A DNA stretch of 64,000 nucleotides from Balanoglossus misakiensis (taxonomy: Eukaryota > Animalia > Hemichordata). The position numbers and the translations under genes are program-made. The stretch covers positions 16,229,028 to 16,293,027 of the forward strand of contig CM082576.2 of the NCBI GenBank assembly GCA_040954595.2, given 5' to 3'. Below, piece by piece: positions 8,382-45,515 of the stretch (its first letter is position 1; every line of letters starts with the position of its first letter). The notes beneath the pieces are model-generated. The model was not told the origin of the DNA. It saw only the letters and a program-made list of their open reading frames with translations, and did no database searches.

Positions 8382-9174
8382 GTAAGTGGAATAAAAAAGC
8401 ACAGTTTTAGGTCCTGCTGTTTTTGGGAAACCGAAATTACACGCACACACTTGGTATCGTCCAGACTAGCATGGGTCGTCTTGGGCAATCATTTAAAAAA
8501 TAACTGATCATTGTTTCCATAGACCGCAAGGGACAAAGTCACTTTCGCGCTGCCTCTTTTCCTTTAAATATGGTTGATACATGACACCGTTTATGGTATT
8601 CTACATGTGGATATATAGTGAATCAACATTGGACCACACACACCTTACATCCCGCTTGTATGATACGAGAGTAAAAATCTAGCCAAAATGAATGAATGGT
8701 AAACACCGATTATTCATTTTGGCGAGTTTTTCACTCTCGTGTCTACAAGCAGGATGGAAGGTGTGTGTGGTCGAACGTTGATTCACTATATATCCACATA
8801 TATAAACATAAACAGCATCTTGTATCAAGCATAATTAATGGAAAGGGGGGGCAGCGAGAGAGAGACATTGTCCCTTTAAGGAGTATATCATACGTCTTTT
8901 TCATAAAGAGGACGCCCTTCCAAGATGACGCAAAAAGAAGATCAGTAAGTCACGGAGTGAAAACCTTATTGTCTTATGTACCGTTGTTATAGTTGGGAGA
9001 GACGTTCGACAGTCACATTTTATTGTAAGGAAAATTGTACACACAAATTGTACCACATATAGAACAAACCAGTTGCATGGAGATAACGCCATATGTTGGA
9101 ACGGCGCCCTCTTTATGAAAAAAGGGTGTATTGTTTACCAGGGTGAGTATTTGGTGTTGTGTTGTCTTGTATAG

Positions 9175-9339
9175 AGAGTGGCTGGGGTGCGTGGGGAGGT
9201 TGGAGTAGCTGTATCTCGTCTCAAACAAAGTGGGGAGAGCGTAAACGAACAAGAAACTGCAACAACCCTGCACCAGCAAGTGGCGACCGTGGCTGCAGTG
9301 GAGACTCCCAAGAAACCATTCCTTGCAGAACTTTATGCG
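9175..9339 (+). CDS. Mosaic gene exon 5: TSP1 repeat
   Basis: Acceptor TTGTATAG|. Translates ESGWGAWGGWSSC...RKRTRNCNNPAP...GCSGDSQETIPC. Donor G|GTAAGC, phase 1-1. Confidence 0.92.
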
Positions 9340-9484
9340 GTAAGCCAAAAACTGCATTAAAACGACCCATGATTTATTCGTACATGAATTCAAACCTACA
9401 TTTGCAAAACACCCATCTCCCCGCGGAACAGCTGGTCTCAATCTTTCAATATGTGCATGCCATGATCTTTTTCGTTTATTTCAG

Positions 9485-10081
9485 AAACTAAAAAAACTCT
9501 TGAATTGACGAGTCCTGACACGAACATATTGACCTGGGTGCGTTTTCGTGATACAAGTGCTTTGACGTCCTGTATATGGGTGAAACCTACAAAGGCCAAC
9601 AGACCAGGAACTCTTATGTCATACGGGGCAATAGAAGGCAACGGCAACGAATTCGCTATGCTAGACACACGTGGGCTACAAATTGTAATCAAATCAGAAA
9701 GGAAAATTACGTCATTGAATGTAAACGACGGTTCGTGGCATCACGTCTGTGTCACATGGTCCTCACGTGACGGAGTATGGAAATACTATCACGACGGTGC
9801 CTTGTTCAGCGGCGGTGAGAATCTCCGGAGTGGTGAAACGGTCGCCGGTGGTGGCGTTCTAGTCCTGGGACAACGGCAGCGTTTTGTTGGAGGGGGATTC
9901 GACGCGTCTGAAGCATTTCTGGGTAGTCTGAAAGAATTCAACATGTGGTCCAGCGTCTTGAGTGGTGACGAAATATCTGAAATGGCACGTGGTTTTGACA
10001 GGTCCATGAGCAGCGACATCTTTGCATGGGGAACATGTCCACTCGATATAATGGGCGACGTGAGACTTCAATGCGATTGCT
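9485..10081 (+). CDS. Mosaic gene exon 6: pentraxin domain 1
   Basis: Acceptor TTATTTCAG|. Pentraxin signature HHVCVTWSS, LVLGQ, and FLGSLKEFNMWS. Donor T|GTGAGT at 10081/10082; read-through stops at 10137. Confidence 0.92.
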
Positions 10082-10313
10082 GTGAGTGCGTGAACAATGA
10101 TTATCTTCGGTGTTTGAAAAAGAGCGATGAACATTGAATGTACACGTTTTACTGATGGAATATTTTTCCTGAAACGTCCGCTTTTACAAAATGAAGGCCA
10201 CAATAATTTGCTGCCCAACATTGCAATATTGCAATATTTTTTTTGCAAATTTTTGTCACAATAACAGTGTGAAAGACCAATAAATTTAGATTTTGTTGTA
10301 CTCTATATTGCAG

Positions 10314-10478
10314 ATGGCAGGTGGAAGGAATGGGGACGCTGGGGCGCGTGTAACTGGTCGAAAACAAAGCCGGGAGAACGTAGAAGAACAAGAAACTGCG
10401 ACAACCCTTCACCTGTCGATATGAGACACAATTGCGGTGGAGAACTGCAAGAACCCATTCCACGCAGAAATGGCTGTG
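10314..10478 (+). CDS. Mosaic gene exon 7: TSP1 repeat (paralogous to exon 5)
   Basis: Acceptor TATTGCAG|. Translates GRWKEWGRWGAC...RRRTRNCDNPSP...CGGELQEPIP. Same 165-nt length as exon 5. Donor G|GTAAGA. Confidence 0.88.
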
Positions 10479-11160
10479 GTAAGAAAGGATTTACACACAA
10501 ACATGTAGCAGCATTGTCGTTCATTAATACCACAACACCATGTGTATTGACATGTATATGCAAATTGGACCTGCCACCCATTATTTAATATGGGCAAACT
10601 TCTGCCATTGTGCATTTGTACAAAAGAGATTGATACGCGATGTTTTAGTTTTGGTTGGCGGCCGGGGGGTGAAGGTTGCACCTGCATCCCACGTGTCATA
10701 CTTTGCGTGTAGTGTGGGGTAGAATTATAGGAATGTATGACAATCATGTAAATAGAATTTACAGTATATATCACTCATAATTCTAATTAAGTCTTTTTGT
10801 ATAGGTATAGTTTATGAGTGCACGTATTTTGTCTGTTTGTATATTATTATTATTTGGGTAAACTCGTGTTTCTCTTCTGTTTGCATGTTTACTTCTGGCT
10901 TCTTAAAGGCTTAACTATACTATAAATAGGCCCCATATCTTAATCCCTTCATTGTTAGGAATGAATGACACAAAGAAAGAGCTCTTATATGCCTCCTGTG
11001 TTGAGACAAGCTGATCACGTGCAATTTTAAATGACGCTGACAAAAGAAAGTGCATGTACTCATTTGGGAGGTGCACTGTCCGATGTTTTTCATTTCTGGA
11101 GCGGAACATAACATACCTATACAACCGGGTTCACCATGGATTGAACTGGCGCAAATTTAA

Positions 11161-11977
11161 AGGCACGTAAGCTGTAACTTTGGGGATAATTTTCATAATC
11201 TTTGTTTCAAACTGCACTACCAATAGTCCATGCAGATGAAGGCAGTGAACTATACACAAGCATTATAAACCCTAAATATGAGTGCATATGCAAGTTTTAA
11301 CCAGATAAATAATACAGCTTTGCCGCAAGCGATTATGGCCGCCACCGTGGGAAAATGCAAGAAACAATGAAAATGTTGCATTTCCGGTTATGAAACTTCA
11401 TAAACAAAACATGATCTCATCCACTTGAGCTCATGGAAGTAAATGTACACCACTGAGACATCAGATTTTCATTTTTCATTGCAATATTGCACTTTTTTTA
11501 AAATTGCAAGAATTTTCGTTTTTCTTTAATTTTTGACCATTTTGTCATAAATAAGTGTTGAGCTTGATATATTATCATGAAATATCATTTATTATATTAT
11601 ACCAGTATATTGATGGTGTAAATCGCGCTATTTGATTGGTCGAGACACGACACGTGACCGTGATATATTAGCCATATACCACAGTCATATATCATAGTCA
11701 AAGAAAATGCCTTTTTAAAATGTTTTATGCAAAGTTTCAATATACTGGCATAATATAATAGCAATAAAACACCCCAGCCATGGTATACCACTCGATTTTG
11801 ACCAGTTCAACTCCATATACGCACTCGCTATCGCTCGTGCGTATATGTCGTGAACTGGTCAAAATCTCGTGGTATACCATGGCTGGGGGTGTTTTATTGC
11901 TTAAATAGACATAATTAAAAGCATATATGAGATTATTTAAAACTTTATTTTTTTATCCAGTTGCAGCTTACGTGCCT
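11161..11977. mobile_element. TTAA-flanked MITE (Kolobok-like)
   Basis: TTAA|AGGCACGTAAGCTGTAACT ... AGTTGCAGCTTACGTGCCT|TTAA. A TTAA duplication with AG-starting TIRs is typical of Kolobok. Confidence 0.75.
11760..11901. repeat. Long imperfect palindrome (about 142 bp) nested in the TTAA MITE
   Basis: Arms AGCAATAAAACACCCCAGCCATGGTATACCAC... / ...GTGGTATACCATGGCTGGGGGTGTTTTATTGCT. Confidence 0.9.
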
Positions 11978-12127
11978 TTAACTCATGATATCACCGGGCG
12001 CATTTCTCTGTTTTGTGAGGCTGAGCGGCGATTCCCCGGATGTAGCCACGTGCATGAGCTTACTTCCCCTATTGCTATTTCAATCTGCACGGTCCAATAC
12101 TATATATGTTTTTTTTCCTGGTTGCAG

Positions 12128-12741
12128 AAAGTAAAACGCTTGCATTGGAGAGCAAGTATAACAGGATAGTGGCCAATGTCTCTGTTCCCGAACTCACTGA
12201 TTTGACGTCCTGCATCTGGGCAAAAAGTACAAGTGAAGGGTCACACGTAAAAGGACTTACTTTGGTGTCGTACAGTGCAGAAACCGGCACGCCTGATGAG
12301 TTCTGTATGGACAGCAAACAAAATTTTGACATCAAAGAATATTGGAAAAAAACGTCAGCGGGCGGAGAGATCGGTAGTTCATGGCAACACCTGTGCGTCA
12401 CGTGGTCTTCAGCACAGGGGAAATGGCAATACTACCGCAACGGTGTCATGGTTAGCAGTGGTGCGCGTTTCAGGAGGGGCGAAAAGGTTTCTGGTGGGGG
12501 CCTTATAGTTTTTGGACAAGACCAAGACACTTTCGGAGGATCTTTCGATAAACACCAATCTTTTCTCGGCAGTCTGACGGAATTCAACATGTGGTCCAGA
12601 GTTCTGAGTGCCGACGAAGTTGCCGAAGTCAAACGTGACTGTAACGGCGCCCTCAACGGCGACGTCTTTGCTTGGAATACGGATTTGATCGATGTAATGG
12701 GCGATGCGTGTTGGAGATTTGAACGCGTTTGTTGTGAGTAA
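12128..12741 (+). CDS. Mosaic gene exon 8: pentraxin domain 2 (probable terminal exon)
   Basis: Acceptor TTTTCCTGGTTGCAG|. Motifs HLCVTWSS, VFGQDQD and FLGSLTEFNMWS. Stop TAA ends at 12741, with AATAAA near 13096 and 13181. Confidence 0.92.
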
Positions 12742-14191: not shown

Positions 14192-16034
14192 TTACACAAC
14201 AGGTCTTATTTTCATCTCGGTATTCTTCAAAGAGTAGTAATACGTTTTCCATGCATACCAAGTTACCCCTTTGGCGTACTGATCCGTCTGTCCGCCGAGG
14301 TACAGACCCTTCAAATTGGAACTATGACATTCAGTGTACCACCATGCCCCATTGTACAACCGAGCACAGCCCTGCCGCATACTCATCATTGTCCCTATCC
14401 CTGGTTGAGAAATACTTGGTTGCGTGTTCGCTAAGACTATCCCCTGTAGAAAACACACACTCTTCCACCGGTATCGCTTCTTTAGCACGACGAAAACCGA
14501 AAAAACGATCCGTCACACTGTGCGGAAGTGCGTTCTCAACAAGCAGGTCAAATTTGGCTGGCCTACGTCGCCTGTAAAAAAAGCCTTAGGGATTTTTGTG
14601 AACGGTACAAAATCTCTGTGTACAAAACATTGGATTTTTAGCGTTCGATCCAGTTACTGTGGTTACAGGACGCGCACGCTATCGCTGACCGCTGCTTTGC
14701 CGTATTAGCGTGGCGGCCTATGGCCGGGCGGTAGCTGCCGTAAACATACTCGGACAGGGGGTGTGCACACAATCGTGCGTATTTTTAATTAGTTACAAGC
14801 CCCTTGTCGGACGTTCATAACGGTTTCGATCAAAATTGAGTGTAGTGACCTATAAAGGCCCATAGCAACGGGCAAAAAGATCCGGGGACCCATCTTAAAG
14901 GGACATTATTTTTTGGCTATATTTTCAGTACTTTCGTTCTGTGTACCAAATGTAATTTCTTGTTCTATATCAAACAGCCTGATTATATATATCCGGTATA
15001 TGTACCTACACTGATTGTCAACATAACTATAGCCGTAGGTATGTAACGGCCGATGTTATTGTTGCGAATATTACCTAACAATGTTTATAATTCAAACAGC
15101 TGTAAACATTTTTTAAAAAAAAACTTTGCTTAGTTTTATCGGATGAACGTTGGTGTTTACGTGCATTTCATTAATAACATACATGTATATGCACATTTTG
15201 ATGTCTGCAAGAACATCCTTATTGACAAACGTGTACAGTACAACAGTACAGAAATGTGGCGAGACATGTTTTTGCATGGCAAAACTAATGTCTTCCTACC
15301 TGCGTTTCCGGTATATTCTCCAAGAGTCAGTTTATATTTACTGAATTCATCACCAATGACGAATCTATCATATTTTGCGTATCTCTGGTTTCGTTGTCAA
15401 AGTCTTCCATGTCAATTCTGAGTTTGTAAGTCCGTTGATTTGTCAATCGATGCAGATTATCATTTCCCAGCCAGAACTCGGCAGCAGGAAACCCGAATCC
15501 ATTTTTGTAGTCATTCCAGTCACGGTAGAAATCTAAGCTACCATCGCGTCTCCTTTGAAATACCTTATAATTAAAAGAATGAACGCGAAAACCATCAACG
15601 CCAGACTGAGACCAATTAAGGTGTGTACCTTCCACAGGAATTACTTTGAATCGGACACCAAGAAATCGGAAGTAGCTGAATTGCAAAAATATAAAAAATA
15701 CCAAAAGTGATCGGCTTTCATCCGGTGAGAAAACAATTGTATCTGGCAATCTATCATAATCGTGTATTCCAGAACTATAGTTTTACACGTTTGCAATACA
15801 GATTAAATTAACAGTTTTCTCTCGAAGCAGCGCTTTTATTTTAAGGAATAATACTATTCTAATAGACACAAGTATTCTAATAGACACATACCGTCCACCC
15901 TCCGTTATCTGTCTCCATATCACAATAGACTTTGAATGGGGTTCCGTCGTCCATGGGTTGCACAGTGTACACGCCACTTGGAGTTTCTTTGTCCCGCCGA
16001 TAAATATCATAGCAATCCAACCGTGGCCGACGCT
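14192..16034 (-). pseudogene. Fibrinogen C-terminal domain (FReD; ficolin/tenascin/angiopoietin-like lectin) gene, frameshifted
   Basis: Three exons with canonical splice sites: 16034-15892 (DCYDIY...SGVYTV...VYCDMETDNGGWT), 15563-15300 ([24 protein letters not shown]...[10 protein letters not shown]...) and 14443-14192 (GDSL...FSTRDRDND / CARLYNGAWWYTECHSSNL...EMKIRP). There is an extra GA near 15383 and a one-base shift near 14372. No 5' exons were found. Confidence 0.82.
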
Positions 16035-16839: not shown

Positions 16840-17107
16840 AGACTCCTCCAAGCGGCTCTGGGGTTTCTTTACTGTGCCGGGCATTTCACAGTAAAACTTC
16901 ACTGAGAACCGATACACCGACGTATAACCCTGAACAAAGAGTACTGAGATTAGTGTCAAGATGAAACAGACTTTCCTCGACCTGCCCCGTTGCCAGAGCA
17001 AGGAGTACTGAGTTCTGTGCCAACATTGCACCAAATCCTTTCCTCAACCTGCACACTGCCAGTGCACAATCAACAGCTACCCACGCGGCCATGGATTGGA
17101 GGAGTCT
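16840..17107 (-). ncRNA. Novel structured RNA candidate, subtype A copy 1
   Basis: 12-bp closing helix AGACTCCTCCAA/TTGGAGGAGTCT, conserved core GTGAAGTTTTACTGTGAAATGCCCGGCACAGTAAAGAAACCCCAGAGCCGC, and covariation with subtypes B and C. Strand chosen because most mismatches become G-U on the - strand. Confidence 0.6.
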
Positions 17108-17610
17108 TTGACGTTAGTTCCTTTAGCCCGGAAACAGTGTTGTCATGAAGACAAAAAAGAATGACAGAGAAATCAACAGATCATATTTTGCTCAAAGGCA
17201 GAGACTGTACTCACCGAGGCTGTACTTACTGAAAACATGCCAGGCGCCGATGTTGTCCACTTGAGATAATGTTCACAATTTTGTTCGGAAGTCTTCTTCC
17301 AGTTTCCATGTGTCGCACATGTTTTCTTTACATGCTACATTATGTACACATAGCCGTTCTGTCATTCTTTTATGTTTCCAAAGGACCCACATTTAGCTCC
17401 CGTGGTTACCCACACGAATTGTTCCGTATGTCTGCCCTTCTGTACATGCCTATTTCTGTGTCATCGATATTTAAAGAACGGCTTATCACATTTGAACCCA
17501 ATTTGATGGACATGTAATGATTCAAAATGGCGAGGCTTACCAGTGTTGTGATAACCCGTTGGATGAGTAACAAATCTGTCGCCCCAAAAACAAACTACAG
17601 GACAATTTGG

Positions 17611-17885
17611 AGACTCCTCCAAGCGGCTCTGGGGTTTCTTTACTGTGCCGGGCATTTCACAGTAAAACTTCACTGAGAACCGATACACCGACGTATAACC
17701 CTGAACAAGGAGTACTGAGATTAGTGTCAAGATGAAACAGACTTTCCTCGACCTGCCCCGTTGCCAGAGCAAGGAGTACTGAGTTCTGCGTCAACATTGC
17801 ACATAACCTTTTCCTCAACCTGCCCACATGGCTACATCAGTGCACAACAAACAGCTACCCACGCGGCCATGGCTTGGAGAAGTAT
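17611..17885 (-). ncRNA. Novel structured RNA candidate, subtype A copy 2
   Basis: Same core as A1. Closing helix ACTTCTCCAAGC/GCTTGGAGGAGT has a U-G wobble on the - strand. Confidence 0.6.
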
Positions 17886-18576
17886 TTGATGTCAGTTCTT
17901 TACCCCGGAAACATGAAGACAAAAAAGAATGACAGAAGTTTGGCGCAAAGGCAGAAGAAAAACAAGACTGTACTCACCGAGAACACCCCAGGCGAGGGGA
18001 CTTACATGAAATGTTCCATCTCTGTTTGCGCTGTCCACGTATATACAACGTTGATCCCGTAGACAATATCGTTTTCTCAATATCTCGAGTGTTTCCGTAG
18101 CACCGACGCAGTTGTCATATACGACTGGGTTTCTCAATCTCTTTTACATTCCAACTGTCATCATCCAAATATCATGTCTCCTGTCTTCTGGTTCGACGGT
18201 TAGGTTAATTTTCTTAATTTCGAACCTGTGATGCACACCTTCCTACTATTTACAACAAAAGTTTGATATGTCTATAAATCTTAGAATAGTGGTTTGTTTA
18301 CTTTGTTTCTCGCTTGACAAAAGTGTTTCCTTACGAATGCTGAGCCCCATTCGGTAAGCCGATGCAATTTTACAAATTATCGTTGGGAGTTGCTCGACTT
18401 CTTTGGTAAAATGAATGATACTGCTATAAAAATTATAATATGCTAGCCTAATAGATTTGTGCATACGGTTTTCAAAGTTGATGTGAAAAATATGGTTCTA
18501 ATTGTTGGCAAAAGTAACCTTATCTGTCGTTAGTCTAATATTTTAGAGAAAGAAACAACGAAAACATTTTTTTACG

Positions 18577-18818
18577 GAGCCCTGTAAGAGGTTCTGGGGT
18601 CTCTTTACCGTGCCGGGCATTTCACAGTAAAACTTCACTATGTATTCATACACCAGCGGAGGGGTGGGTACAAGATTTGACCCTGAACAAGGTCTACAAA
18701 CGGCGATGGGTCGGCTCGTTCTCTCCCCTTTCACTTAACCACCTGACCCCTGCCTCGACCTGTTCACTACTGGTGTAATTTCCACAGCTACCCACGTGAC
18801 CATAGCGTACAAGGGCTT
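18577..18818 (-). ncRNA. Novel structured RNA candidate, subtype B copy 1
   Basis: Closing helix AGCCCTTGTA/TACAGGGCT, arm helix TACACCAG/CTGGTGTA, conserved core. Confidence 0.58.
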
Positions 18819-19212
18819 ATATATTATGATCACTTTTACCCGGAAATGTCTAGCTGCAAGAATTTGTCAAGACAATGACAGATAAGATTACCTTGTACCA
18901 TTCCCGTGGCATTTTTCGATTGGGAAATTGTCAACTTCATGAGCTATGTGTTACCCCCCCTCAACCCCCCCCCCCAAAAAAAAAAAAAAAAATCTAAGGA
19001 AATTTGTGTGTGTTAGTGACTGTGTGTGAAGTCTACCGTTCACGGTAACATAGAAAATTATTTTGCCAAACTTAGAATAGAAAATATATGTTGGAGTTTA
19101 TTATTTACATTTATTCACATATGCAGCTCAATTCAAAACACGGTTTAAAAGGACATAAAGTTGTATGCCGGTGCCGAATCACATTGTTTTTTAAAATGTA
19201 GCAAATTTTGTT

Positions 19213-19422
19213 GAGTCTTCCAAGCGGTTCTGGGGTCTCTTTACCGTGCCGGGCGTTTCACAGTAAAACTTCACCGTGTACTCCTACGCCAGCGTTTTTT
19301 AGTGGAGACAAGGAATGACGGGATGGCCGAACCACCAACATCAGTTCTACTTGTTCAACACCAGTGTACTTCCCCCGGCGTACTTTCCACGGCTACCCAC
19401 GTGACCATAGCTTGGCGGTCTC
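19213..19422 (-). ncRNA. Novel structured RNA candidate, subtype C copy 1
   Basis: Closing helix GAGACCGCCAAGC/GCTTGGAAGACTC, arm helices GCCGTG/CACGGT and TACGCCGG/CTGGCGTA (compensatory versus B), conserved core. Confidence 0.58.
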
Positions 19423-22400
19423 TTTGATTCAACCTCTTAAAGCCCAGAAATATATACTGTTTTCATTCAGAAGACTAACGACAGACACCGCTGAATATTA
19501 AAATCACTGTCTATTGAAATGAGCTGTATATATGATACCAATGGGCCTAATCTTTACGATAGTTACGAATCATTCCCTTGCCTTGAGTAGGATGTTGTAT
19601 GTGTAACGCTCTTTAGGAAAATAATAATCACAGTCGCGTGAGAGTTTGTTACACGTCGAACTGTTCCTATTCTTCTGAGTCATAGGGGCAATTCGCCGTG
19701 TAATAAAAATGCTCTTTAGATACGACTTTATTTACCCGAAATACCAAAGTTTATGCAACAATCACTCCCACTTTTGATCCACGTGTGACCCCCTAGATAG
19801 GTTAGAATTATCCTGCGCTACAATCTCTGTACGGCAGCGCGTTTGACGTGAGCAGGGCCAGGGGGAACGAACGCGCTACTTGTGACAACATGTCATTCCA
19901 TTCGTGCGACGCGCACGCAGCCGTGCGCACGATGCATGCAATGTGATGTTTGGCCGAAGCACAGCGACTGCGGCCGAAGCTTGTGTATCGCTGTTTGTAT
20001 AAAGTTTACTGGCATACAGTACCTCTTCTACGACTTTTTTTGTAAAATTAGAATTCATTGGTTATTTTGCATAATTTTTAACCAATGGCGTACATGGCCA
20101 AGACGAGTTGCTTAGCATCGCACTGTATGCATCACACGACAAATATTACAGAAAACAAAAGTCTCTCACGACTCTTACCCGAGAGAGGCGCTCTTCATAT
20201 TTTATGTCCAGTAGTTCCAGTGAACACTGCCAAAACAAGTGCGTGAAGAGCGGGTTCTCAACCAGCCACTTTACAACAAAGAAAATGAAACGAAAGCAGA
20301 GAGTGTAGAGCCGCTGCTTGTGCTTTGTGATCGTGAGGAGTCGTCTATGGCAACAGTGACACAAATAGAACATCAGAACACTTCCTGTTTTCTTGCGACA
20401 AAAGCATGATGGGAATTTCATCGCGAGAACTTTCGCGCGTCCGTGAGCGGGTAACTTAGCAACAAGTATGGCGAACATTCCTTTCTTACGGCGTGGTGGC
20501 GACAGCCTTTAGGCGCGGCTTTCCGCGGACCCGAATTTTCCTTTCATTTGGCGAAGGAGGAATCTTTGCATGTACAGATTATTCTAAACCTTTAAATCTT
20601 GTGAACAAGGGGTATAACATTCCAATGATAAAATGTACTTATTTTTAGTTGGAGTTTTTGACCTAAAATTTGCGTATAAAGTTTCCTTTTAGACTTGCTC
20701 TCGTCGTAGCCTCGTAGCATTGTCTGTGCGACAGTGCTGTAAAAAAAAAAACAGTTAGACATGAATCTTACCGAGAGGCGGCGCTTTTCGGATGACAATG
20801 TTAAGTACTTGAAGTGTGGTAGAACTACCAAATGATGAAAACAGGATTTCAGCGAAAGTTTCTCGTCTTTTGTTACACTGAAGCGCGAAGGGTGGCGTCC
20901 ATCCGGCGTCTGGCTGGTAGTGTTGCGGAGAGTCACGGTTGCCGACAGCAACAGAACAATCGAAACGCACAAGAACGTTTGTGACCCAAAGCATGATGGG
21001 TATTTTGCGGTACGGCCCGCGAAAGAACCAATCGTTCGCTCTTCAGTCACTAGTAGAGACTTGAAGCCTAAAGAGAGCCGAAGAAATGTAGGATTTTTTA
21101 ATTGTTGACCTAGACAGCATAGACGAGTGACGGTAGTGAGAATGGGCTTGCACATGCACGTGACACCAAACTGTGATGACAACATGAACAGCGCCACCGA
21201 CGGTTAGAAATGTACAGAAATGTTGTGCGTGTGTACATTGTATGTACTATGTATTGGTTGTGTATCACTCGTGTATAAAATTGAACAGTAAATGATTTCA
21301 CATTTTTTCAAACGTTTACAAATATTTATAATTTTCTGAAAAATAGTACAAAATTGCCATGTACTGTTTATTAGTATTATGGTGTGTGTCACTACGTCAC
21401 TTCCGGTTTAACCCGCTCTCAGTCAGCAAAACATGGTCGACCAAGCAGTGTCACGCGTGTAGCTTTCTGTGCGCAATCGACTTATGTTCTCGTAGGTTTT
21501 GTAATGGAAACTCCGTTCGAACGAAAAACCAATCGATTTTTTTTAGTTTATGTATGTTTAGCATCGTTCTGTGAGGAAAGTACTATCGATTTTGTTCCGA
21601 GTTGCGACTTTTTGGTGTTCTTTCATTCCGTATGTCAGTTGGCATCATGGCGTACTGTTGCGAACGATCGTACTCGGGCGACGTAGTTTGAAGTTAGCAG
21701 GCAGACTAAATAGCGAGCGCACAGCTTTGTTATGTGTATATTTTGAAAGACTAATATGTAATGTGTGTGAAATTGCATGGGAGCCCCAATGCGCCCTTTT
21801 ATTTTATCGATTTCACCGTATTTAGAAACTGTATGCGCCTAACACATCCCTATCCGATTATCTCGCTGTCATTCCATAACCTCTGAGTCAGGAAGACGTC
21901 GAAGACAGAGGCGATGGATTCACTCACTACTACTTACAGATGCGCCACAGCCATGGGAGCCACCTGGGAGGAAATCATCCAGGAAGCGACAAATACCAAG
22001 AATACTTACCTGGTCCTGATTACGATTCGGACACCGGAAGCGCCGAGAGGCAGTAAACATTGAATACAACATCAGAAAAGAAAATCCTATTTTAATTAAG
22101 GCAAACGCTGGCATCAAAGCCAATACAATATTTTATTGTTTGAATTCATAGTATGCCAAGTTGAATGCAGAACTACCGGTAAATGTATAAAGGTGTATGA
22201 TTAATTTGTGTATGAGAAGATGTCAGTTTATGGAACCTAACAGTTGCATGAGGTAAAACGTGATAAAGAGAGACCGTATTTAAAACACAGTTAACATGGG
22301 TGGTGTTACGACCCCAAGTTAGCAAAACTATATTAGGACAGAAAAGCACACAAGTTATGCAATAGCCCGTAAAAATACAGAACTACGTGCTTTGTAAAGA

Positions 22401-23210
22401 GTTTGGCAAAATTAACGTGATAATGTTATTCTGAGAGTCTTTTGTTGAAATGCAACATAGCATTTCGATTACATTTGTATAATTGGTTTGCGAAAAATCC
22501 CCAATGAAAATTCAATGTGACATGACACGTCATATTGTCGTGTAATGCATGATTGTAGGCGCACAGAGGTGAACCAAACTCCCTAGATAAATATTTTCAC
22601 ATCTAAATCTCTATTAGTAATCGATTTTCAGTAGTATTTGCATAATATTCAATCGTAAATATAATTTTTAATTTGAGGATTAGCTGACTACATGTATGCG
22701 GTTGTACAAGGCACCTTCGGCTTGGCACACATTTTTGCCATTGAATGCAGTATTTTTTTTACTTTGCCGATTATATTTAGATATAGAAATTGTAAATTAA
22801 TGTCTACACTTTGGCGATGACTCAACATACATGTACAGTGTGGTATTGGCAGTAAAGTTTATTGGACGAATTTATATGAAGAAGTGTGTAAAAGAAAGAT
22901 GTGCACATTCAGAGCTAGGGGGCGCTATTTACCGAGACCATGCCCATCTCCTCACAACAAATGCAGCATTGAGTTGTCAAAATTATAAAGTGCAACCATA
23001 ATTCCCTTAATTCCCTTAGGGCAATTTTCTAAACAACTCGAACTGTATGTTAAGCTTTAATAAATTGTTTGGTCGTATTTAGTGTTTGACGTTGAAAATC
23101 ACACTGTATTTACTGTCGCAAGATGGTGGGAATTACCCTAGCCAACTGTGACATGAGTTTAGAATTGCCCAAAATAGGAGTTTGAGAACCAGAGTATTGT
23201 ACAGAAAAGA

Positions 23211-23260
23211 ACTCACTCACTCACTCACTCACTCACTCACTCACTCACTCACTCACTCAC
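23211..23260. repeat. (ACTC)n microsatellite
   Basis: Read directly. A shorter copy occurs in the duplicate near 42724. Confidence 0.95.
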
Positions 23261-23461
23261 ACACAATGAATTATGCTTTAACTAGTCTGTAATTTACACC
23301 TAAAACACCGAAATACAGTATGCAGATTAAAACGTTTCTCTAACTACTTTATAATAACGCGGGTGACGAAAGCTTTGCACACACAGTTTCACGACATAAA
23401 CAGTGTTCACAGTCCCCAAATTACTGTTAATCGGGTTTCTCGTCCGTCGACTTTTACCAAT

Positions 23462-23736
23462 TTACACTCGATTTACTTCACTACTTCTTAGGCCTATACA
23501 TGTAAGTGTCTTCGGTTGCGAGGTGCGGTCGAGTCGCTTGTGAAGCGATAGCGACAGGACGGCAAACCACGCTACTGACAATAGCAGGAGTCCGGCGAAT
23601 GCACCGAATAGTTTAGCCCTGTAGTCTGGCAGATCGTAGAGCAGACAGTTCCCTTGTTCATCGCACGCCGTCCGTCCCCATAACATACACGCCGAGTCGA
23701 TGAGGGCCCCGGTGTATATCGGCGCCGGTATAGTGG
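23462..23736 (-). pseudogene. Duplicated last coding exon of the SLCO gene (orphan or alternative terminal exon)
   Basis: TIPAPIYTGALIDSACMLWGRTACDEQGNCLLYD... is nearly identical to 42951-43225. The frame is intact and acceptor CCCTTGCAG is retained. Upstream exons were not duplicated. Confidence 0.8.
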
Positions 23737-24375
23737 CTGCAAGGGATTTGTTGTATATCTTAGGCTAGGTTTACAATCATGTCTTCATTATAACCCTGCC
23801 AAGTTAGGCGACATACATGTATATTTAGTAGTAAGCTGGGCAAATCTCAATCTGATTAAAATCAGATGTAGGGAACGGCGACGCGTTTTTTTTTACAGCC
23901 CGGAAACAGTGATGTCGTGAAGACAAAAAAGAATGACAGAGAAATCAACAGATCATATTTTGCTCAAAGGCAGAGACTGTACTCACCGAGGCTGTACTTA
24001 CTGAAAACATGCCAGGCGCCGATGTTGTCCACTTGAGATAATGTTCACAATTTTGTTCGGAAGTCTTCTTCCAGTTTCCATGTGTCGCACATGTTTTCAT
24101 TACATACTACATTATGTACACATAGCCGTTCAGTCATTCTTTTATGTTTCCAAAGGACCCACATTTAGCTCCCATGGTTACCCACACGAATTGTTCCGTA
24201 TGTCTGCCCTTCTGTACATGCCTATTTCTGTGTCATCGATATTCAAAGAACGGCTTATCACATTTGAACCCAATTTGATGGACATGTAATGATTCAAAAT
24301 GGCGAGGCTTACCAGTGTTGTGATAAGCCATTGGATGATTTACAAAACGGTCGCCCCAAAAACAAACTACAGGAC

Positions 24376-35198: not shown

Positions 35199-35835
35199 AT
35201 AGACATGGTCTATTTTACCCGGAAATGGCTAGCTAGCTGCAAGAATTTGTCAAGACAATGACAGATAAGATTACTTTCCTACAGCATTGTTCTGTTGGAA
35301 ATTATCACTTTCCTCAATTATAGTATACTACCCAAATAATAAAAAATATATTCTCTGCGAATTATGGTGTGTTTTTAGTGACTGTATGTAAAGTAAGTTC
35401 AAATCTTAATCCTTCCAAAAGAGGATAATGCTCAGAAAAGTTAGTCCTTTCAAATTTCCCCTTCAGAATTTATCACCGTCACATTCGACCTTCAAGCCAC
35501 GTTCTGGACACACAGACCCATACTCGCGTAAACAAAACCATTTGGGTCTTACCATCAGGCAGCGCTCTTAAAATAATGCTATTTATGTCCTAGAATCTTA
35601 CTATCTTACTGAGATTAACACGGTAACGACCTGAACATCAGTGTCGTTTACCTCAAACATTCATGGTTGTTAAAAGTATCCCATATGAGTGTTCAGTCCC
35701 CGTTCGTTTTGTAAGCCTGTTGTTTTTAGGGTATGTGAAAAACACTGCCGTTTTTTTTCATTATTAGCAAAAGTTACCTTATCTGTCGTTAGTCTCATTT
35801 TTTAGAGAAAGAAACAACGAAAACAGTTTTTTACG

Positions 35836-36077
35836 GAGCCCTGTAAGCGGTTCTGGGGTCTCTTTACCGTGCCGGGCATTTCACAGTAAAACTTCACTAA
35901 GTATTCATACACCAGCGGAGGGGTGGGTACAAGATTTGACCCTGAACAAGGTCTACAAACGGCGATGGGTCGGCTCGTTCTCTCCCCTTTCACTCAACCA
36001 CCTGACCCCTGCCTCGACCTGTTCACTACTGGTGTAATTTCCACAGCTACCCACGTGACCATAGCGTACAAGGGCTC
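35836..36077 (-). ncRNA. Structured RNA candidate, subtype B copy 6
   Basis: Complete copy. Confidence 0.55.
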
Positions 36078-36716
36078 ATAGACATGGTCTATTTTACCCG
36101 GAAATGGCTAGCTAGCTGCACGAATTTGTCAAGACAATGACAGATAAGATTACTTTCCTATAGCATTGTTCTGTTGGAAATTATCACTTTCCTCAATTAT
36201 AGTATACTACCCAAATAATAAAAAATATATTCTCTGCGAATTATGGTGTGTTTTTAGTGACTGTATGTAAAGTAAGTTCAAATCTTAATCCTTCCAAAGG
36301 AAGATAATGCTCAGAAAAGTTAGTCCTTTCATATTTCCCCTTCAGAATTTATCACCGTCACATTCGACCTTCAAGCCACGTTCTGGACACACAGACCCAT
36401 ACTCGCGTAAGCAAAACCATTTGGGTCTAACCATCAGGCAGCGCTCTTAAAATAATGCTATTTATGTCCTAGAATCTTACTATCTTACTGAGATTAACAC
36501 GGTAACGACCTGAACATCAGTGTCGTTTACCTATATACATTCATGGTTGTTAAAAGTATCCCATATGAGTGTTCAGTCCCCGTTCGTTTTGTAAGCCTGT
36601 TGTTTTTAGGGTATGTGAAAAACACTGCCGTTTTTTTTTCATTATTAGCAAAAGTTACCTTGTCTGTCGTTAGTCTCATTTTTTAGAGAAAGAAACAACG
36701 AAAACAGTTTTTTACG

Positions 36717-36958: not shown

Positions 36959-37358
36959 ATAGACATGGTCTATTTTACCCGGAAATGGCTAGCCAGCTGC
37001 AAGAATTTGTCAAGACAATGACAGATAAGATTACCTTGTACCATTCCCGTGGCATTTTTCGTTAGGGAAATTGTCAACTTCATCAGCTATGTGTTACCCC
37101 CCTCAACTCCCCCCCCCCCAAAAAAAAAAAAAAAAAATTCTAAGGAAATTTGTGTGTGTTAGTGACTGTGTGTGAAGTCTACCGTTCATGGTAACATAGA
37201 AAATTATTTTGCCAAACTTAGAATAGAAAATATATGTTGGAGTTTATTATTTACATTTATTCACATATGCAGCTCAATTCAAAACACGGTTTAAAAGGAC
37301 ATAAAGTTGTATGCCGGTGCCGAATCACATTGTTTTTTAAAATGTAGCAAATTTTGTT

Positions 37359-37568
37359 GAGTCTTCCAAGCGGTTCTGGGGTCTCTTTACCGTGCCGGGC
37401 GTTTCACAGTAAAACTTCACCGTGTACTCCTACGCCAGCGTTTTTTAGTGGAGACAAGGAATGACGGGATGGCCGAACCACCAACATCAGTTCTACTTGT
37501 TCAACACCAGTGTACTTCCCCCGGCGTACTTTCCACGGCTACCCACGTGACCATAGCTTGGCGGTCTC
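37359..37568 (-). ncRNA. Structured RNA candidate, subtype C copy 5
   Basis: Complete copy. Confidence 0.55.
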
Positions 37569-39018
37569 TTTGATGCAACCTCTTAAAGCCCAGAAATATA
37601 TACTGTTTTCATTCAGAAGACTAACGACAGACACCGCTGAATATTAAAATCACTGTCTATTGAAATGAGCTGTATATATGATACCAATGGGCCTAATCTT
37701 TACGATAGTTACGCATCATACCCTTGCCTTGAGTAGGATGTTGTATGTGTAACGCTCTTTAGGAAAATAATAATCACAGTCGCGTGAGAGTTTGTTACAC
37801 GTCGAACTGTTCCTATTCTTCTGAGTCATAGGGGCAATTCGCCGTGTAATAAAAATGCTCTTTAGATACGACTTTATTTACCCGAAATACCAAAGTTTAT
37901 GCAACAATCACTCCCACTTTTGATCCACGTGTGACCCCCTAGATAGGTTAGAATTATCCTGCGCTACAATCTCTGTACGGCAGCGCGTTTGACGTGAGCA
38001 GGGCCAGGGGAACGAACGCGCTACTTGACAACATGTCATTCCATTCGTGCGACGCGCACGCAGCCGTGCGCACGATGCATGCAATGTGATGTTTGGCCGA
38101 AGCACAGCGACTGCGGCCGAAGCTTGTGTATCGCTGTTTGTATAAAGTTTACTGGCATACAGTACCTCTTCTACGACTTTTTTTGTAAAATTAGAATTCA
38201 TTGGTTATTTTGCATAATTTTTAACCAATGCCGTACATGGCCAAGACGATTACGGCCTGTATTAAATCGCTAACTTTTCCCGAGTTGCTTAGCATTGCAC
38301 TGTATGCATCACACGACAAATATTACAGAAAACAAAAGTCTCTCATGATTCTTACCCGAGGGAGGCGCTCTTCATATTTTATGTCCAGTAGTTCCAGTGA
38401 ACACTGCCAAAACAAGTGCGTGAAGAGCGGGTTCTCAACCAGCCACTTTACAACAAAGAAAATGAAACGAAAGCAGAGAGTGTAGAGCCGCTGCTTGTGC
38501 TTTGTGATCGTGAGGAGTCGTCTATGGCAACAGTGACACAAATAGAACATCAGAACACTTCCTGTTTTCTTGCGACAAAAGCATGATGGGAATTTCATCG
38601 CGAGAACTTTCGCGCGTCCGTAACTTAGCAACAAGTATGGCGAACATTCCTTTCTTACGGCGCGGTGGCGACAGCCTTTAGGCGCGGCTTTCCGCGGACC
38701 CGAATTTTCCTTTCATTTGGCGAAGGAGGAATCTTTGCCTGTACAGATTATTCTAAACCTTTAAATCTTGTGAACAAGGGGTAAAACATTCCAATGATAA
38801 AATGTACTTATTTTTAGTTGGAGTTTTTGACCTAAAATTTGCGTATAAAGTTTCCTTTTAGACTTGCTCTCGTCGTCGCCTCGTAGCATTGTCTGTGTGA
38901 CAGTGCTGTAAAAAAACAACAGTTAGACATGAATCTTACCGAGAGGCGGCGCTTTTCGGATGGCAATGTTAAGTACTTGAAGTGTGGTAGAACTACCAAA
39001 TGATGAAAACAGGATTTC

Positions 39019-39927: not shown

Positions 39928-42900
39928 TTATTTTTAGTTGGAGTTTTTGACCTAAAATTTGCGTATAAAGTTTCCTTTTAGACTTGCTCTCGTCGTAGCC
40001 TCGTAGCATTGTCTGTGCGACAGTGCTGTAAAAAAACAACAGTTAGACATGAATCTTACCGAGAGGCGGCGCTTTTCGGATGGCAGTGTTAAATACTTGA
40101 AGTGTGGTAGAACTACCAAATGATGAAAACAGGATTTCAGCGAAAGTTTCTCGTCTTTTGTTACACTGAAGCGCGAAGGGTGGCGTCCATCCGGCGGCTG
40201 GCTGGTAGTGTTGCGGAGAGTCACGGTTGCCGACAGCAACAGAACAATCGAAACGCACAAGAACGTTTGTGACCCAAAGCATGATGGGTATTTTGCGGTA
40301 CGGTCCGCGAAAGAACCAATCGTTCGCTCTTCAGTCACTAGTAGAGACTTGAAGCCTAAAGAGAGCCGAAGAAATGTAGGATTTTTTAATTGTTGACCTA
40401 GACAGCATAGACGAGTGACGGTAGTGAGAATGGGCTTGCACATGCACGTGACACCAAACTGTAATGACAGCATGAACAGCGCCACCGACGGTGAGAAATC
40501 TACATAAATGTTGTGCGTGTGTACATTGTATGTACTATGTATTGGTTGTGTATCACTCGTGTATAAAATTGAACAGTAAATGATTTCACATTTTTTCAAA
40601 CGTTTACAAATATTTATAATTTTCTGAAAAATAGTACAAAATTGCCATGTACTGTTTATTAGTATTATGGAGTGTGTCACGACGTCACTTCCGATTTAAC
40701 CCGCTCTTAGTCAGCAAAACATGGTCGACCTAGCAGTGTCACGCGTGTAGCTTTCTGTGCGCAATCGACTTATGTTCTCGTAGGTTTTGTAAAGGAAACT
40801 CCGTTCGAACGAAAAACCAATCGATTTTTTTAAAGTTTATGTATGTTAGCATCGTTCTGTGAGGAAAGTACTATCGATTTTGTTCCGAGTTGCGACTTTT
40901 TGGTGTTCTTTCATTCCGTATGTCAGTTGGCATCATGGCGTACTGTTGCCAACGATCGTACTCGGGCGACGTAGTTTGAAGTTAGCAGGCAGACTAAATA
41001 GCGAGCGCACAGCTTTGTTATGTGTATATTTTGAAAGACTAATATGTAATGTGTGTGAAATTGCATGGGAGCCCCAAAGCGCCTCTTTTATTTTATCGAT
41101 TTCACCGTATTAAGAAACTGTACTATCTCATATGCGCCTAACACATCCCTATCCGATTATCTCGCTGTCATTCCACAACCTCTGAGTCAGGAAGACGTCG
41201 AAGACAGAAGCGATGGATTCACTCACTACTACTTACAGATGCGCCACAGCCATGGCAGCCACCTGGGAGGAAATCATCCAGGAAGCGACAATTACCCAGA
41301 ATACTTACCTGATCCGGATTACGATTCGGACACCGGAAGCGCCGACAGGTAGTAAACATTGAAATTAACATCAGAAAAGAAAATCCTATTTTAATTAAGG
41401 CAAACGCTGGCATCAAAGCCAATACAATATTTTAAGCGAGACCGTATTTAAAACACAGTTAACATGGATGGTGTTACGACCCCAAGTTAGCAAAACTATT
41501 AGGACAGAAAAGCACACAAGTTATGCAATAGCACGTAAAAATACAGAACTACGTGCTTTGTAAAGAGTTTGGCAAAATTAACGTGATAATGTTATTCTGA
41601 GAGTCTTTTGTTGAAATGCAACATAGCATTTCGATTACTCTCCCGACCTTAAATAGGTTTTTGGCTATCTAGGTGGGTGATAAAAATCTCACATGGTCGA
41701 CACAATTTCAAGATGGCCGATTTTTGCCATGTTTAAGGAATAGGAGTTCATGAGCTAAAGTGATGATGGGTCATTCTGAAACTTTTTAACAGAAAAAATA
41801 ACAAAATGTGAAAAAAGTTTAATGAGTTTAATATGGTAACTACAAAGAGACATGTTTGACCCAAGGAAGTCATGAAATACAGTATAAAACATATCATTTC
41901 TTCTATCTCTTACTACAGTGGGTTGTCGACTTTTCGACCAGAATGCAATGGGATTTGACCCCTTAGCGCAAAGTGAAAACCTATTTATTGTAAGACAGCC
42001 ACATTGCGAAAAATCCCCAATGACAATTCAATGTGACATGACACGTCATATTGTCGTGTAATGCATGATTGTAGGCGCACAGAGGTGAACCAAACTCCCT
42101 AGATAAATATTTTCATACCTAAATCCCTATTAGTAATCGATTTTCAGTAGTATTTGCATAATATTCAATCGAAAATATAATTTTTAATTTGACGATTAGC
42201 TGACTACATGTATGCGGTTGTACAAGGCACCTTCGGCTTGGCACACATTTTTGCCATTGAATGCAGTATTTGTTTTACTTTGCCGATTATATTTAGATAT
42301 AGAAATTGTAAATCAATGTCTACACTTTGGCGATGACTCAACATACATGTATAGTGTGGTATTGGCAGTAAAGTTCATTGGACGAATTTATATGAAGAAG
42401 TGTGTAAAAGAAAGATGTGCACATTCAGTGCTAGGGGGCGCTATTTACAGAGCCATGCCCATCTCCTCACAGCAAATGCAGCATTGAGTTGTCAAAATTA
42501 ATAAAATGCAAACATGATTCCCTTAAATAGATAGGGCAATTTTCTAAACAACTCGAACTGTGTGTTAAGCTTTAATAAATTGTTTGGTCGTATTTAGTAT
42601 TTGACGTTGAAAATCACACTTTATTTACTGTCGCAAGATGGTGGGAATTACCCTAGCCAACTGTGACGAGTTTAGAATTGCCACAAATAGGAGTTTGAGA
42701 ACCAGAGTATTGTACAGAAAAGAACTCACTCACTCACTCACTCACTCACACACAATGAATTATGCTTTAACTAGTCTGTAATTTACACCTAAAACACCGA
42801 AATACAGTATGCAGATTAAAACGTTTCTCTAACTACTGTATAATAACGCGGGTGATGAAATGTTTGCACACACAGTTTCACGACATAAACAGTGTTCACA

Positions 42901-42950
42901 GTCCCCAAATTACTGTTAATCGGGTTTCTCGTCCGTCGACATTTACCAAT

Positions 42951-43225
42951 TTACGCTCGGTTTACTCCACTACTTCTTAGGCCTATACATGTAGGTGTCT
43001 TCGGTTGCGAGGTGCTGTCGAGTCGCTTGTGAAGCGATAGCGACATGACGGCAAACCACGCTACTGACATTAGCAGGAGTCCGGCGAATGCACCGAATAG
43101 TTTAGCCCTGTAGTCTGGCAGATCGTAGAGCAGACAGTTCCCTTGTTCATCGCACGCCGTCCGTCCCCATAACATACACGCCGAGTCGATGAGGGCCCCG
43201 GTGTATATCGGCGCCGGTATAGTGG
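42951..43225 (-). CDS. SLCO: SLCO/OATP organic anion transporter, coding exon 8 (last)
   Basis: Acceptor CTTCCAG|. Translates TIPAPIYTGALIDSACMLWG..C...GNCLLYD, the OATP signature region, then TM12 and stop TAA. Confidence 0.92.
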
Positions 43226-43517
43226 CTGGAAGGTAAGAGCATTGTTGTATATCTTAGGCTAGGTTTACAATCATGTCTTCATTATAACCCTGCCAAGTTA
43301 GGCGACATACATGTATATTTAGTAATAAGCTGAGCAAATCTGTGCAGTGCTGTAGGAATGCGCATTATTCGGCATATATTTGTTGTTACATAGACACATG
43401 CCATCTTGTTATGAAAGGTTGATTAGTTACAAAACGACAACAATTTTTGCTGAATTCAGAGTAAATAATATTGTTTAGACCAAAACATCAGAATAGGCAG
43501 TCGATGGCAATACGTAC

Positions 43518-43582
43518 CTAGTAGCTGTGTTGTAATGACGCGTATACAAAGTGCATACGCTTTATCCTTCGGCAACACACAT
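43518..43582 (-). CDS. SLCO: SLCO/OATP coding exon 7
   Basis: TTTACAG| RCVLPKDKAYALCIRVITTQLLG |GTACGT. Phases 2/1 fit both neighbours. Confidence 0.88.
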
Positions 43583-43800
43583 CTGTAAATATAACATTTT
43601 GATGTATTTCGCGTGGTATTTAGATACTGAGATAATGTTTTGAATATTGCTTATAACATGCATTTTTGAAAATATTTATTTGTCCTGTGTCAATGCGTCA
43701 AACCAACAACCCCAACAATGGAAACACAAAAAATTGTGGGACAGGAAATGGAACGTTTTTGCATGCCTTACACAATACTTGATGATTGTCAAGGGTTTAC

Positions 43801-43976
43801 CTCATTGTCAAGGCAACTTCTACATTAGCAATTGCTGATAGAAAGAATCCAAAGACAGCGACCAACACACCAAACACCACTAATTGATTGGTGCACGTCT
43901 GTCCACACATTCCTTGATGTGCATAGTCTACGGCAGTGTCATTTATTGTTGCAATACATCCACAATCTGTGAAGTT
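43801..43976 (-). CDS. SLCO: SLCO/OATP coding exon 6
   Basis: CACACAG| NFTDCGCI...GMCGQTC + TM10 ...LTMR |GTAAAC. Confidence 0.9.
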
Positions 43977-44392
43977 CTGTGTGAAAATCGTGTATAAAAC
44001 GAGGACATTTTGAATGGAATACATCCAATACGCATTATATTATAAGAAATAAGCGGTGACCCAAATATAGTAAACCATGTCTTTACACGTACGGCAAGAA
44101 TTTCACTTGTGAAATACAGACAACTTCAGCGTTCACTGGTGAAACTACATGTATAAACTCCATCGGCGCCATCTCATGAATATTTACTCTGGGTAACAAC
44201 GAAATTTGTCAACCCGCCACCCAGAACATTCTACCACCAATAAAATAAATGAACTCGTGTCCTCATAAAGACACAAAAGCAAGGCGCACTGTTATGCAAC
44301 AATTTATAATTTATGTACACTCCCCTACAGAACCCATTTCCCTCTCTGTGAACATGAATATATAAGGACTAATGTATTATAAAGTAGATTAC

Positions 44393-44555
44393 TTGACCAT
44401 CTTGGCGAGTCTTGCACCCAGCATGGCAAGCTGAATAGTATGTGATGTCGTTAGAGCCGCAAATTGGCGCATAGGCGTCCGAGCAGCCACATTCAGAATT
44501 GCAAGCAGACTTCACATCCCCGAATCTTCGTACTTGCGGTATCTCAACTGTGCTG
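44393..44555 (-). CDS. SLCO: SLCO/OATP coding exon 5 (Kazal-like domain)
   Basis: CNSECGCSDAYAPICGSNDITYYSACHAGC, the OATP extracellular Kazal motif. Confidence 0.93.
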
Positions 44556-44834
44556 CTATAGAAAGAAGAAAGTTTTTGTTGTAGATTAAATTCGAGACAC
44601 AATTTACGTTATACTGTATAGAGTATCAGTCAGACTTCTTAGCTAGGTTAAATTTATCAAGGCTAGTCTCTGCATAGAAAATGATGTAATGGACGTTATA
44701 TGTCGCTGGTATAAATGTCGAGTGATAAATTACTTTTGGGCATCCAAGTGTCGCTAAGTAACTGGGGGTGGGCAGTGTTCTAGAACTGATAACATGAGGG
44801 CTTTTTTTTCAGTGACTACATTTCAGATACTTGC

Positions 44835-45024
44835 CTTTCCGGGTATGGTTCAGAGAATTTCTCCATCCCACAACCAACACTCATCCCAATGAATGGGATA
44901 CTTGCATTTGCTGCCGCAGCGATCACTGCAAATATTCCCAATTTTATGAGCGTCGGCTTCCATCTACGCAAGAACGCGCCACTGACGATGGAAGCAAATA
45001 TTGCGGCAGGAACGACTGTGGCAG
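44835..45024 (-). CDS. SLCO: SLCO/OATP coding exon 4
   Basis: CATAG| AATVVPAAIFASIVSG... (TM8-9). Donor AG|GCAAGT is GC type and phase 2. Confidence 0.85.
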
Positions 45025-45353
45025 CTATGTATGTAAGCAAAATAGGTTACATTTGGATGATGTGGAGCAGGTATCAATAATCAGAAAGCCAACTGTGTTA
45101 TAGTAGGCCTATTACCGTTAAACATCACTGTTTCGCTCAATGTTACATGCTGATGCAAAATAGTTCTTTACACACAGGTATGGCATTGAGCTAAGATTGT
45201 CTTCACGGAATAATCGCATAAAGTCTATATCTCATCAAACAACAAGGCACCGCTGGGGGTAATGGCGTTGATATGTTATATTTTATCAATGACAATATTT
45301 TGGTCAGTACGCCACTGCGCGACTATTAAGTCCCGACGGTATGGTATACTTAC

Positions 45354-45515
45354 CAAAGATTTTACCAGATATCGAAGGTGTAGTTCTGAAATGCTCTTCC
45401 ATGTATTTTGGAAAGAAGCGCGTCGAATGAACGACAGCCATGTAAGCGATTCTGGCAAAAACCAAGCTGACGAAGGGAACATTGGTGAACAAACGCAGGA
45501 TTGCCCGTTGCCAAT
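45354..45515 (-). CDS. SLCO: SLCO/OATP coding exon 3
   Basis: TTGATAG| DWQRAILRLFTN...FFPKYMEEHF... |GTAAGT. FxPKY-E-F is an OATP motif. Confidence 0.9.

Follow-up and report, generated by a model that had tools for sequence, protein, structure and literature searches.

We found that a short leader motif, TTTCYGGG, on the 5' side of a structured RNA is complementary to the loop of a conserved hairpin in that same RNA, and that this complementarity exceeds chance in all of its subtypes. Leader and loop probably form a pseudoknot, whose role we tentatively place in the maturation of the RNA. The contact is of a kind already known. The RNA that carries it matches no Rfam family, and it is a more surprising object than the pseudoknot; it is unusual for an animal genome to contain a highly structured RNA family of 200-300 nt that Rfam lacks. 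If the pairing between leader and loop is true, it offers a direct and cheap handle on RNA maturation or catalysis. Coordinates refer to the window, the whole stretch of 64,000 nucleotides that was analysed.

The carrier RNA and its array

The carrier RNA is ∼210-280 nt long and occurs as three diverged, related RNAs (subtypes A, B, and C) in a tandem cluster, with a covarying core. The whole array occupies positions 16840-39890 on the minus strand and consists of 14 complete units, 7 leader-bearing truncated units, and 1 loop-only 3' fragment. The array arose by recent duplications, recent duplicates being 94-98% identical, and the 7 truncated units end after the leader. Its least rearranged part is the cluster C, B', A2, and A1 (minus strand), whose members lie 600-930 nt apart. 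Besides A1, described below, this part includes copy A2 (17617-17911, minus strand), with its leader at 17904-17911 and its loop at 17648-17657, and a copy of C (19207-19450, minus strand), with its leader at 19443-19450 and its loop at 19249-19258. No further diverged copies were seen within the window.

RNAalifold, applied to five copies, predicted a P1 helix followed by a three-base bulge, a GGY/RCC helix, an asymmetric CRC loop, and a GGGU/ACCC helix, and then a three-way junction from which a long variable arm and a conserved hairpin branch off. The three-way junction also appeared in single folds of B and C. In A1, on the minus strand, the 5' and 3' arms of P1 lie at 17096-17107 and 16840-16851. 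The 5' conserved block (17073-17092, 17 of 21 positions identical) contains, in order, a YAU bulge, the GGY strand, the CRC loop, the GGGU strand, the junction A, and the start of stem I; its GGY helix strand covaries with RCC, and its UGGGUA is a rival partner of the loop. The 3' conserved block, (A)RACCCCAGARCCGC (16852-16866), contains CCCAGA, which is a rival partner of the leader. The conserved hairpin that bears the loop, stem II, spans 16867-16896, with one column varying between U-A and U-G; the junction GUGAAG of the three-way junction, with its hammerhead-like core, lies at 16897-16902, and the subtype-variable arm, with a covarying basal helix, at 16903-17072. In A this arm contains two repeated modules that we take to be loop-E-like (GAA/AGUA) and a GCAA-capped hairpin, and in C (37425-37535, minus strand) one presumably loop-E-like GAA/AGUA module stands beside stem I. 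We take the variable arms (16903-17072 and 37425-37535) to hold a GCAA-capped and a UUCG-capped hairpin.

Eight of the 44 core pairs changed on both sides, compared with 0-2 when the partners were slid (seven rows); the seven alignment rows represent only three independent lineages, and the covariation is modest. RNAalifold arrived at the core independently. On the minus strand, G-U variants occur in six core columns, and the unpaired cells in the G-U helices were, by eye, pyrimidine mismatches and not A-C. Hence, an RNA read from the minus strand is favoured. The A1 unit was no more stable than its shuffles (z = -0.73). Searching the window against Rfam gave no match at the gathering score and only chance-level hits, at E values up to 10, around A, B, and C; ARAGORN gave 0 hits.

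A leader motif is conserved at a fixed distance from P1

TTTCYGGG is present 5' of the conserved core in subtypes A1, A2, B, and C. An earlier, sequence-only reading had placed the leader of copy A1, TTTCCGGGC, at 17126-17134 and the hairpin loop, AAATGCCCGG, at 16877-16886 (both minus strand), and both positions and letters were right; CYGGG(N) of the leader is the predicted pseudoknot strand. The leader occurs 21 times in the array and the loop 15 times, always on the minus strand, and 14 of the units carry both; outside the array the leader 8-mer occurred only twice in 39.5 kb. The leader sits ∼19-21 nt 5' of P1, and the distance from it to the start of the ATGGYC core is 42, 41, 43, 42, and 42 nt in A1, A2, B', B, and C, respectively.

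In an ungapped three-way comparison of A1, B, and C, the linker was identical at 2 of 19 positions, and the leader had been described as kept in an otherwise divergent flank. The contrast itself stands: identity extends to 7 of 8 positions in the leader and to 6 of 86 (∼7%) in the other flank, for which we estimate a chance of ∼5e-6, and the island thus points to selection on the leader motif. The flank is not wholly divergent, though, as a second motif, TCTGTCRTT, occurs in all subtypes at a variable 25-40 nt 5' of the leader. In A1 it lies at 17160-17168 (minus strand); in units that offer it a partner, it forms the 5' arm of the outer helix. The loop, which had been called invariant, is indeed conserved, but not specially so, because the whole 3' core, stems as well, is identical at 49 of its 54 positions.

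The leader complements the hairpin loop in every subtype

The predicted partner of the leader is the 10-nt loop AAAYGCCCGG, which in A1 is AAATGCCCGG (16877-16886, minus strand). With leader positions 4-9 set against loop positions 10-5, 41 of the 42 alignment cells pair, giving 6 pairs in A1, 5 in A2, 7 in B, and 6 in C, with duplex energies of -12.9, -9.7, -11.6, and -10.9 kcal/mol, respectively. The sequence-only reading had described the pairing as perfect and as kept in B and C through G-U; this holds for A1, B, and C, but in A2 the sixth pair is a G.G and one pair is lost. We compared these values with column-shuffled and random motifs scored against the worst observed duplex energy, in null tests that were devised after the motif had been seen. 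Against the loop, that energy was reached by 2 of 3000 column-shuffled and 5 of 3000 random motifs, and against any 10-nt core window by 5 of 600 and 8 of 600; a cruder count gave a 13% chance of a perfect 5-mer complement somewhere in the invariant core. The complementarity between leader and loop therefore exceeds chance in all subtypes.

Within its own unit, the leader ranked first as a partner of the loop in A1 and B and second in C. If the core is kept fixed, 2.1-5.3 kcal/mol are needed to open the leader; with an assumed penalty of +7 to +10, the leader-loop contact comes to a net energy of -1.3 to -7.5 kcal/mol. In unconstrained folds the leader G's were paired elsewhere, locally, in five of six copies. 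By a hand estimate that stacks all helices straight, the loop would lie ∼90-105 angstrom from the base of P1, so that the linker of 19-21 nt would be nearly taut.

Compensatory, two-sided changes were seen in 0 of the 6 pseudoknot pairs, with the low power of seven rows and three lineages. The loop Y and the leader Y both differ in C, yet they are not partners. The TTT of the leader and the AAA of the loop are conserved and unpaired in the model, and they cannot pair together in this register. The C-to-T change in the leader of C is a CpG to TpG transition; such transitions were ∼8-fold enriched in one pair of paralogs (5/201 versus 6/1891) and barely enriched in another (2/110 versus 16/1208). 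Substitutions that keep a pair through G-U had been used as an argument for pairing, and this argument is weak, given the lack of two-sided changes in six pairs, the pair broken in A2, and the CpG transition in C.

Predicted outer helices enclose the leader in B and C

We looked for outer helices in flanks of 100 nt on either side of the units, using 150 shuffles. They were significant in B', two B copies, and C (p = 0.007, 0.007, 0.007, and 0.013), and no significant outer helix was found in A1 (p = 0.99) or A2 (p = 0.52). In B' (18506-18900), positions 18870-18900 pair with 18506-18536 around the leader at 18839-18846 (p = 0.007). One B copy (35765-36160) pairs 36130-36160 with 35765-35797 (p = 0.007), and a copy of C with a different outer helix (37261-37681) pairs 37660-37681 with 37261-37282 (p = 0.013), all on the minus strand. 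The outer helices of B and C share no sequence, and the leader is enclosed in both. Pairing of the flanks would thus have been kept or regained separately, with the leader inside, and the leader likely lies within a folded precursor. It is possible that the outer helices are inverted repeats at the level of DNA instead of RNA helices.

The sequence-only reading had proposed a tertiary contact between leader and loop. The complementarity beyond chance and the position of the leader within the predicted B and C precursor speak for it, while the missing compensatory changes do not. On balance, we lean towards the view that leader and loop pair at all. That they do so as a pseudoknot at the precursor stage, masking the loop and helping to set the 5' end, is our preferred reading, which we hold tentatively and at somewhat less than an even chance.

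The arms of neighbouring units also match each other. The upstream arm of C (19472-19485, minus strand) complements the downstream arm of B' (∼18520-18533, minus strand) with -27.2 kcal/mol, about as well as the upstream arm of B fits its own downstream arm (-28.2 kcal/mol), and outer helices could therefore compete across neighbours. Splice-donor-like words occur 50-100 nt 5' of the A and B leaders. In the 3' arm of the B outer helix (18500-18540, minus strand, and the equivalent B copies), CAG comes after a branch-point-like CTAAC, and the 5' arm begins at a donor-like GTAATC. Hence, the helix would join and mask the ends of a possible intron of ∼400 nt.

Alternative explanations for the conserved leader

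The leader could instead be a DNA element, a core-promoter or factor-binding site ∼20-27 nt 5' of the P1 start that never enters the RNA, its complementarity to the loop being chance or an inverted copy of one binding site. This would account for one contiguous 8-mer that includes TTT and for a spacing fixed at a typical core-promoter distance, and an 11-mer that we take to be A-box-like, with one mismatch, is present in the 5' core of 5 of 5 copies scanned. We nevertheless consider it unlikely. A complementarity with p ∼0.001-0.013 would have to be a coincidence, the motif lies between the arms of the outer helices in B and C, and it is not TATA-like, a TATA-like word occurring in only one of five flanks. 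Moreover, no B-box stands at a shared position (the best matches have 1-2 mismatches and lie in the variable arm), a T4 run is located inside the conserved core, and C is without GGAA. The variant in C does abolish an ETS-type CCGGAA site, as had been pointed out, and the loss had been taken to favour RNA pairing; it excludes one factor, not promoter function. A rather unlikely alternative keeps the leader in the RNA as part of a two-state switch, in which the leader pairs with CCCAGA of the 3' block and the freed GGGU strand pairs with the loop, or as a single-stranded site for a protein or nuclease. The CCCAGA register uses TT of the TTT, the change in C improves the pairing with CCCAGA (C.A to U-A), and an internal UGGGUA-loop helix pairs in 40 of 42 cells. 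Leader-CCCAGA pairing equals loop pairing in C (-10.9 kcal/mol) and is slightly better in A2 (-10.2 versus -9.7), but it is weaker in A1 (-5.9 versus -12.9) and B (-6.5 versus -11.6); the summed duplex energies come within ∼1-5 kcal/mol of the main model, with the switch favoured in A2 and C. Against it, 37 of 42 cells pair with CCCAGA and 5 of 7 rows have the C.A mismatch, the switch breaks a helix predicted by RNAalifold, and it shows no covariation either. Complementarity alone cannot choose between the leader-loop and the CCCAGA/UGGGUA arrangements, and a switch is possible.

It is also conceivable, if improbable, that the core cleaves itself, as a ribozyme built on a hammerhead-like junction that would cut after GUA of the 5' block and use the pseudoknot as an activating contact. 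The copies stand in tandem, and A, B, and C match 9, 8, and 8, respectively, of what we take to be the 11 hammerhead core positions. The three-helix junction of hammerheads is found (RNAalifold; single folds of B and C), as are junction letters of the form UGA.G / GA.A / UA and a loop-strand pseudoknot of 5-7 bp. The match to what we take to be the consensus core, CUGANGA, GAAA, and UH with a C3-G8 pair, is incomplete, at 8-9 of 11 positions: the junction lacks C3, has U in place of A9 and, in B and C, G in place of A14, and stem II does not open with an R-Y pair. The chance of at least 8 of 11 matches over 24 registers was 0.03-0.29, and no Rfam hammerhead or other ribozyme matched at E values up to 10. 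Pseudoknots are a common activating contact in natural hammerheads (∼40%), but the passages of PMC3088659 that describe them place them between stems I and II, whereas here the pairing strand comes from beyond stem III, ∼20 nt outside P1, and cleavage is putative. We therefore do not file the carrier RNA as a hammerhead on core and Rfam grounds. Equally improbable is that it represents a new animal ribozyme or ribozyme-like class, in which three paralogous subtypes would place a rewired hammerhead-like junction on a long scaffold, use the leader as activator or substrate guide, and excise themselves from a helix-closed precursor. Finally, the leader might be a neutral leftover of duplication or gene conversion without function. 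The array is built of recent duplications with many broken copies, and the identity of 49 of 54 positions in the 3' core could partly reflect homogenisation; on the other hand, the leader is an isolated 7/8 island in a flank of 7% identity, and its spacing is kept across a linker that is 2/19 identical, which makes this explanation very unlikely.

A possible role in maturation of the RNA

Intronic snoRNAs are structured RNAs trimmed out of host transcripts. For the precursor-stage pseudoknot that we prefer, the nearest working model, which is not a family assignment, is the intronic RNase P RNA of Drosophila; in the account of PMC6797745 on its processing, Rat1/Xrn2 and the exosome do the trimming, and base pairs between the 5' and 3' flanks are modelled as a block on 3' trimming until Rat1/Xrn2 has trimmed the 5' side. 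Like intronic RNase P RNA, as far as that account describes it, and like snoRNAs, the carrier RNA is a P1-closed structured core within longer flanks; unlike them, it has no P4 pseudoknot and no Rfam match, and no C/D or H/ACA boxes were seen in it. A conserved leader-loop contact does not appear in those parts of PMC6797745 that treat flank pairing, and the host gene and its splicing are putative here.

On our reading, Pol II would transcribe the cluster C-B-A2-A1 as part of a single host transcript. The outer helix predicted in B and C would close a domain of ∼400 nt that contains the leader. Within this longer precursor, the leader would pair with the hairpin loop over 5-7 bp as a long-range pseudoknot, and we predict that AAAY spans this leader-loop helix, which would stack onto the hairpin stem at its 3' strand. 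The linker of 19-21 nt, kept in length and not in sequence, would tether the base of P1 to the loop. Paired in this way, the leader may mask the loop and help to set the 5' end of the structured RNA. Trimming or cutting during 5' maturation would then remove the leader, and the freed loop could pair with its partner in the mature state, which would be the internal UGGGU or else another molecule in trans.

Comparison with other RNA families

The docking of the leader onto the loop had been likened to EBS-IBS recognition in group II introns. In EBS1-IBS1, an upstream flank forms ∼6 bp with a hairpin loop, on the 3' side of that loop; likewise, the upstream leader would pair with the 3' side of the loop and could position a nearby end. 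The likeness goes no further than analogy, since we found no group II feature and no Rfam match: unlike a group II intron, the carrier RNA has no domain V/VI and is a quarter of the size, and the bases after the paired leader are not GUGYG, with which a group II intron starts. The phage P4 CI and P1 C4 RNAs have a loop that complements their own upstream leader and is freed by processing. In contrast to these RNAs of bacterial phage immunity, to which the resemblance is one of arrangement, the carrier RNA gave no C4-type Rfam hit and no phage match.

Several other families were considered for the carrier RNA and rejected or set aside. For RNase P/MRP, words resembling what we take to be the CR consensus cannot form P4 between CR-I and CR-V by eye, and there was no Rfam hit. 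For C/D or H/ACA snoRNAs, the Rfam hits were at chance level (E 0.64-2.8), and no boxes were seen by eye. A SECIS element combines a RUGA/GA quartet, a helix of 9-11 bp, and an apical AA in the 3' UTR of a selenoprotein gene. GUGA, AAA, and GA occur at SECIS-like distances by eye, with a different register in A; Rfam gave no SECIS match, and none of the 12 frames scanned encoded a member of a selenoprotein family. A Pol III type 2 gene or tRNA-derived SINE was dismissed as there is no B box at a shared position, an A-run follows P1, T4 lies inside the core, and ARAGORN found nothing. A MITE was dismissed as no target-site duplication was visible by eye and the B and C outer helices are unrelated. 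TPP-like folds, K-turns, and HDV-like RNAs were rejected as well, and a SECIS element was set aside.

Searches for homologues

Three patterns gave 0 matches in viral contigs, and a strict pattern gave 0 in metagenomes, both from collections that hold little animal DNA. A 16-mer occurred at 105 viral loci, or 108 with 3 from genomes, none of which had the 5' half or an extended stem. The loose pattern matched at least 116 metagenome loci; among the matches listed, none contained the 5' half, and 3' scores reached 11.8 bits at most. BLAST gave no match in phages and one 40-nt match (E = 0.3) in plasmids. Hence, the viral, metagenome, prokaryotic, phage, and plasmid collections yielded no homologue, and as they contain little animal DNA, this barely constrains the range of the family. 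In the literature searched (motif strings and topics, at the level of abstracts) there was no account of this RNA family, which the ncRNA table of a genome paper could hold. In a lambdoid prophage, one stretch beside kil and gam-like genes (L123, 387-423) agrees with the junction and hairpin at ∼28 of 33 nt, and this look-alike was found in at least 76 of the 105 viral loci. It scores ∼23 bits, roughly the seed alone, and we judged it to be due to chance.

Genomic setting of the array

A stretch 5' of the C-B'-A2-A1 cluster (20380-21410, no strand assigned) may be promoter-like; at 20.4-21.4 kb it contains what we take to be ZNF143-, ETS-, and CRE-like motifs. The window contains exons of an OATP transporter (minus strand, 42951-48932), for which a protein search gave no match at E 1e-30, and of pentraxin and fibrinogen-C domains. 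Among named relatives, those closest to the pentraxin exon belong to Ptychodera flava, with 38-40% identity, which would suggest that the DNA comes from an invertebrate deuterostome. To the left of the array lie the exons of the pentraxin-domain gene, with TSP1-like repeats by eye (9147-12741, plus strand), and those of the fibrinogen-C gene (14192-15782, minus strand). The last OATP exon and its downstream flank are duplicated inside the array (22488-23847 versus 42004-43341, 94% identical). A duplication breakpoint at 23897-23906 (minus strand) directly follows an A1-type leader, in one event only; after it come ∼50 nt of filler and then the last intron and exon of the OATP gene in duplicate form. 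At 61785-62442 (minus strand) there are fragments of the RNase H region of an LTR retrotransposon.
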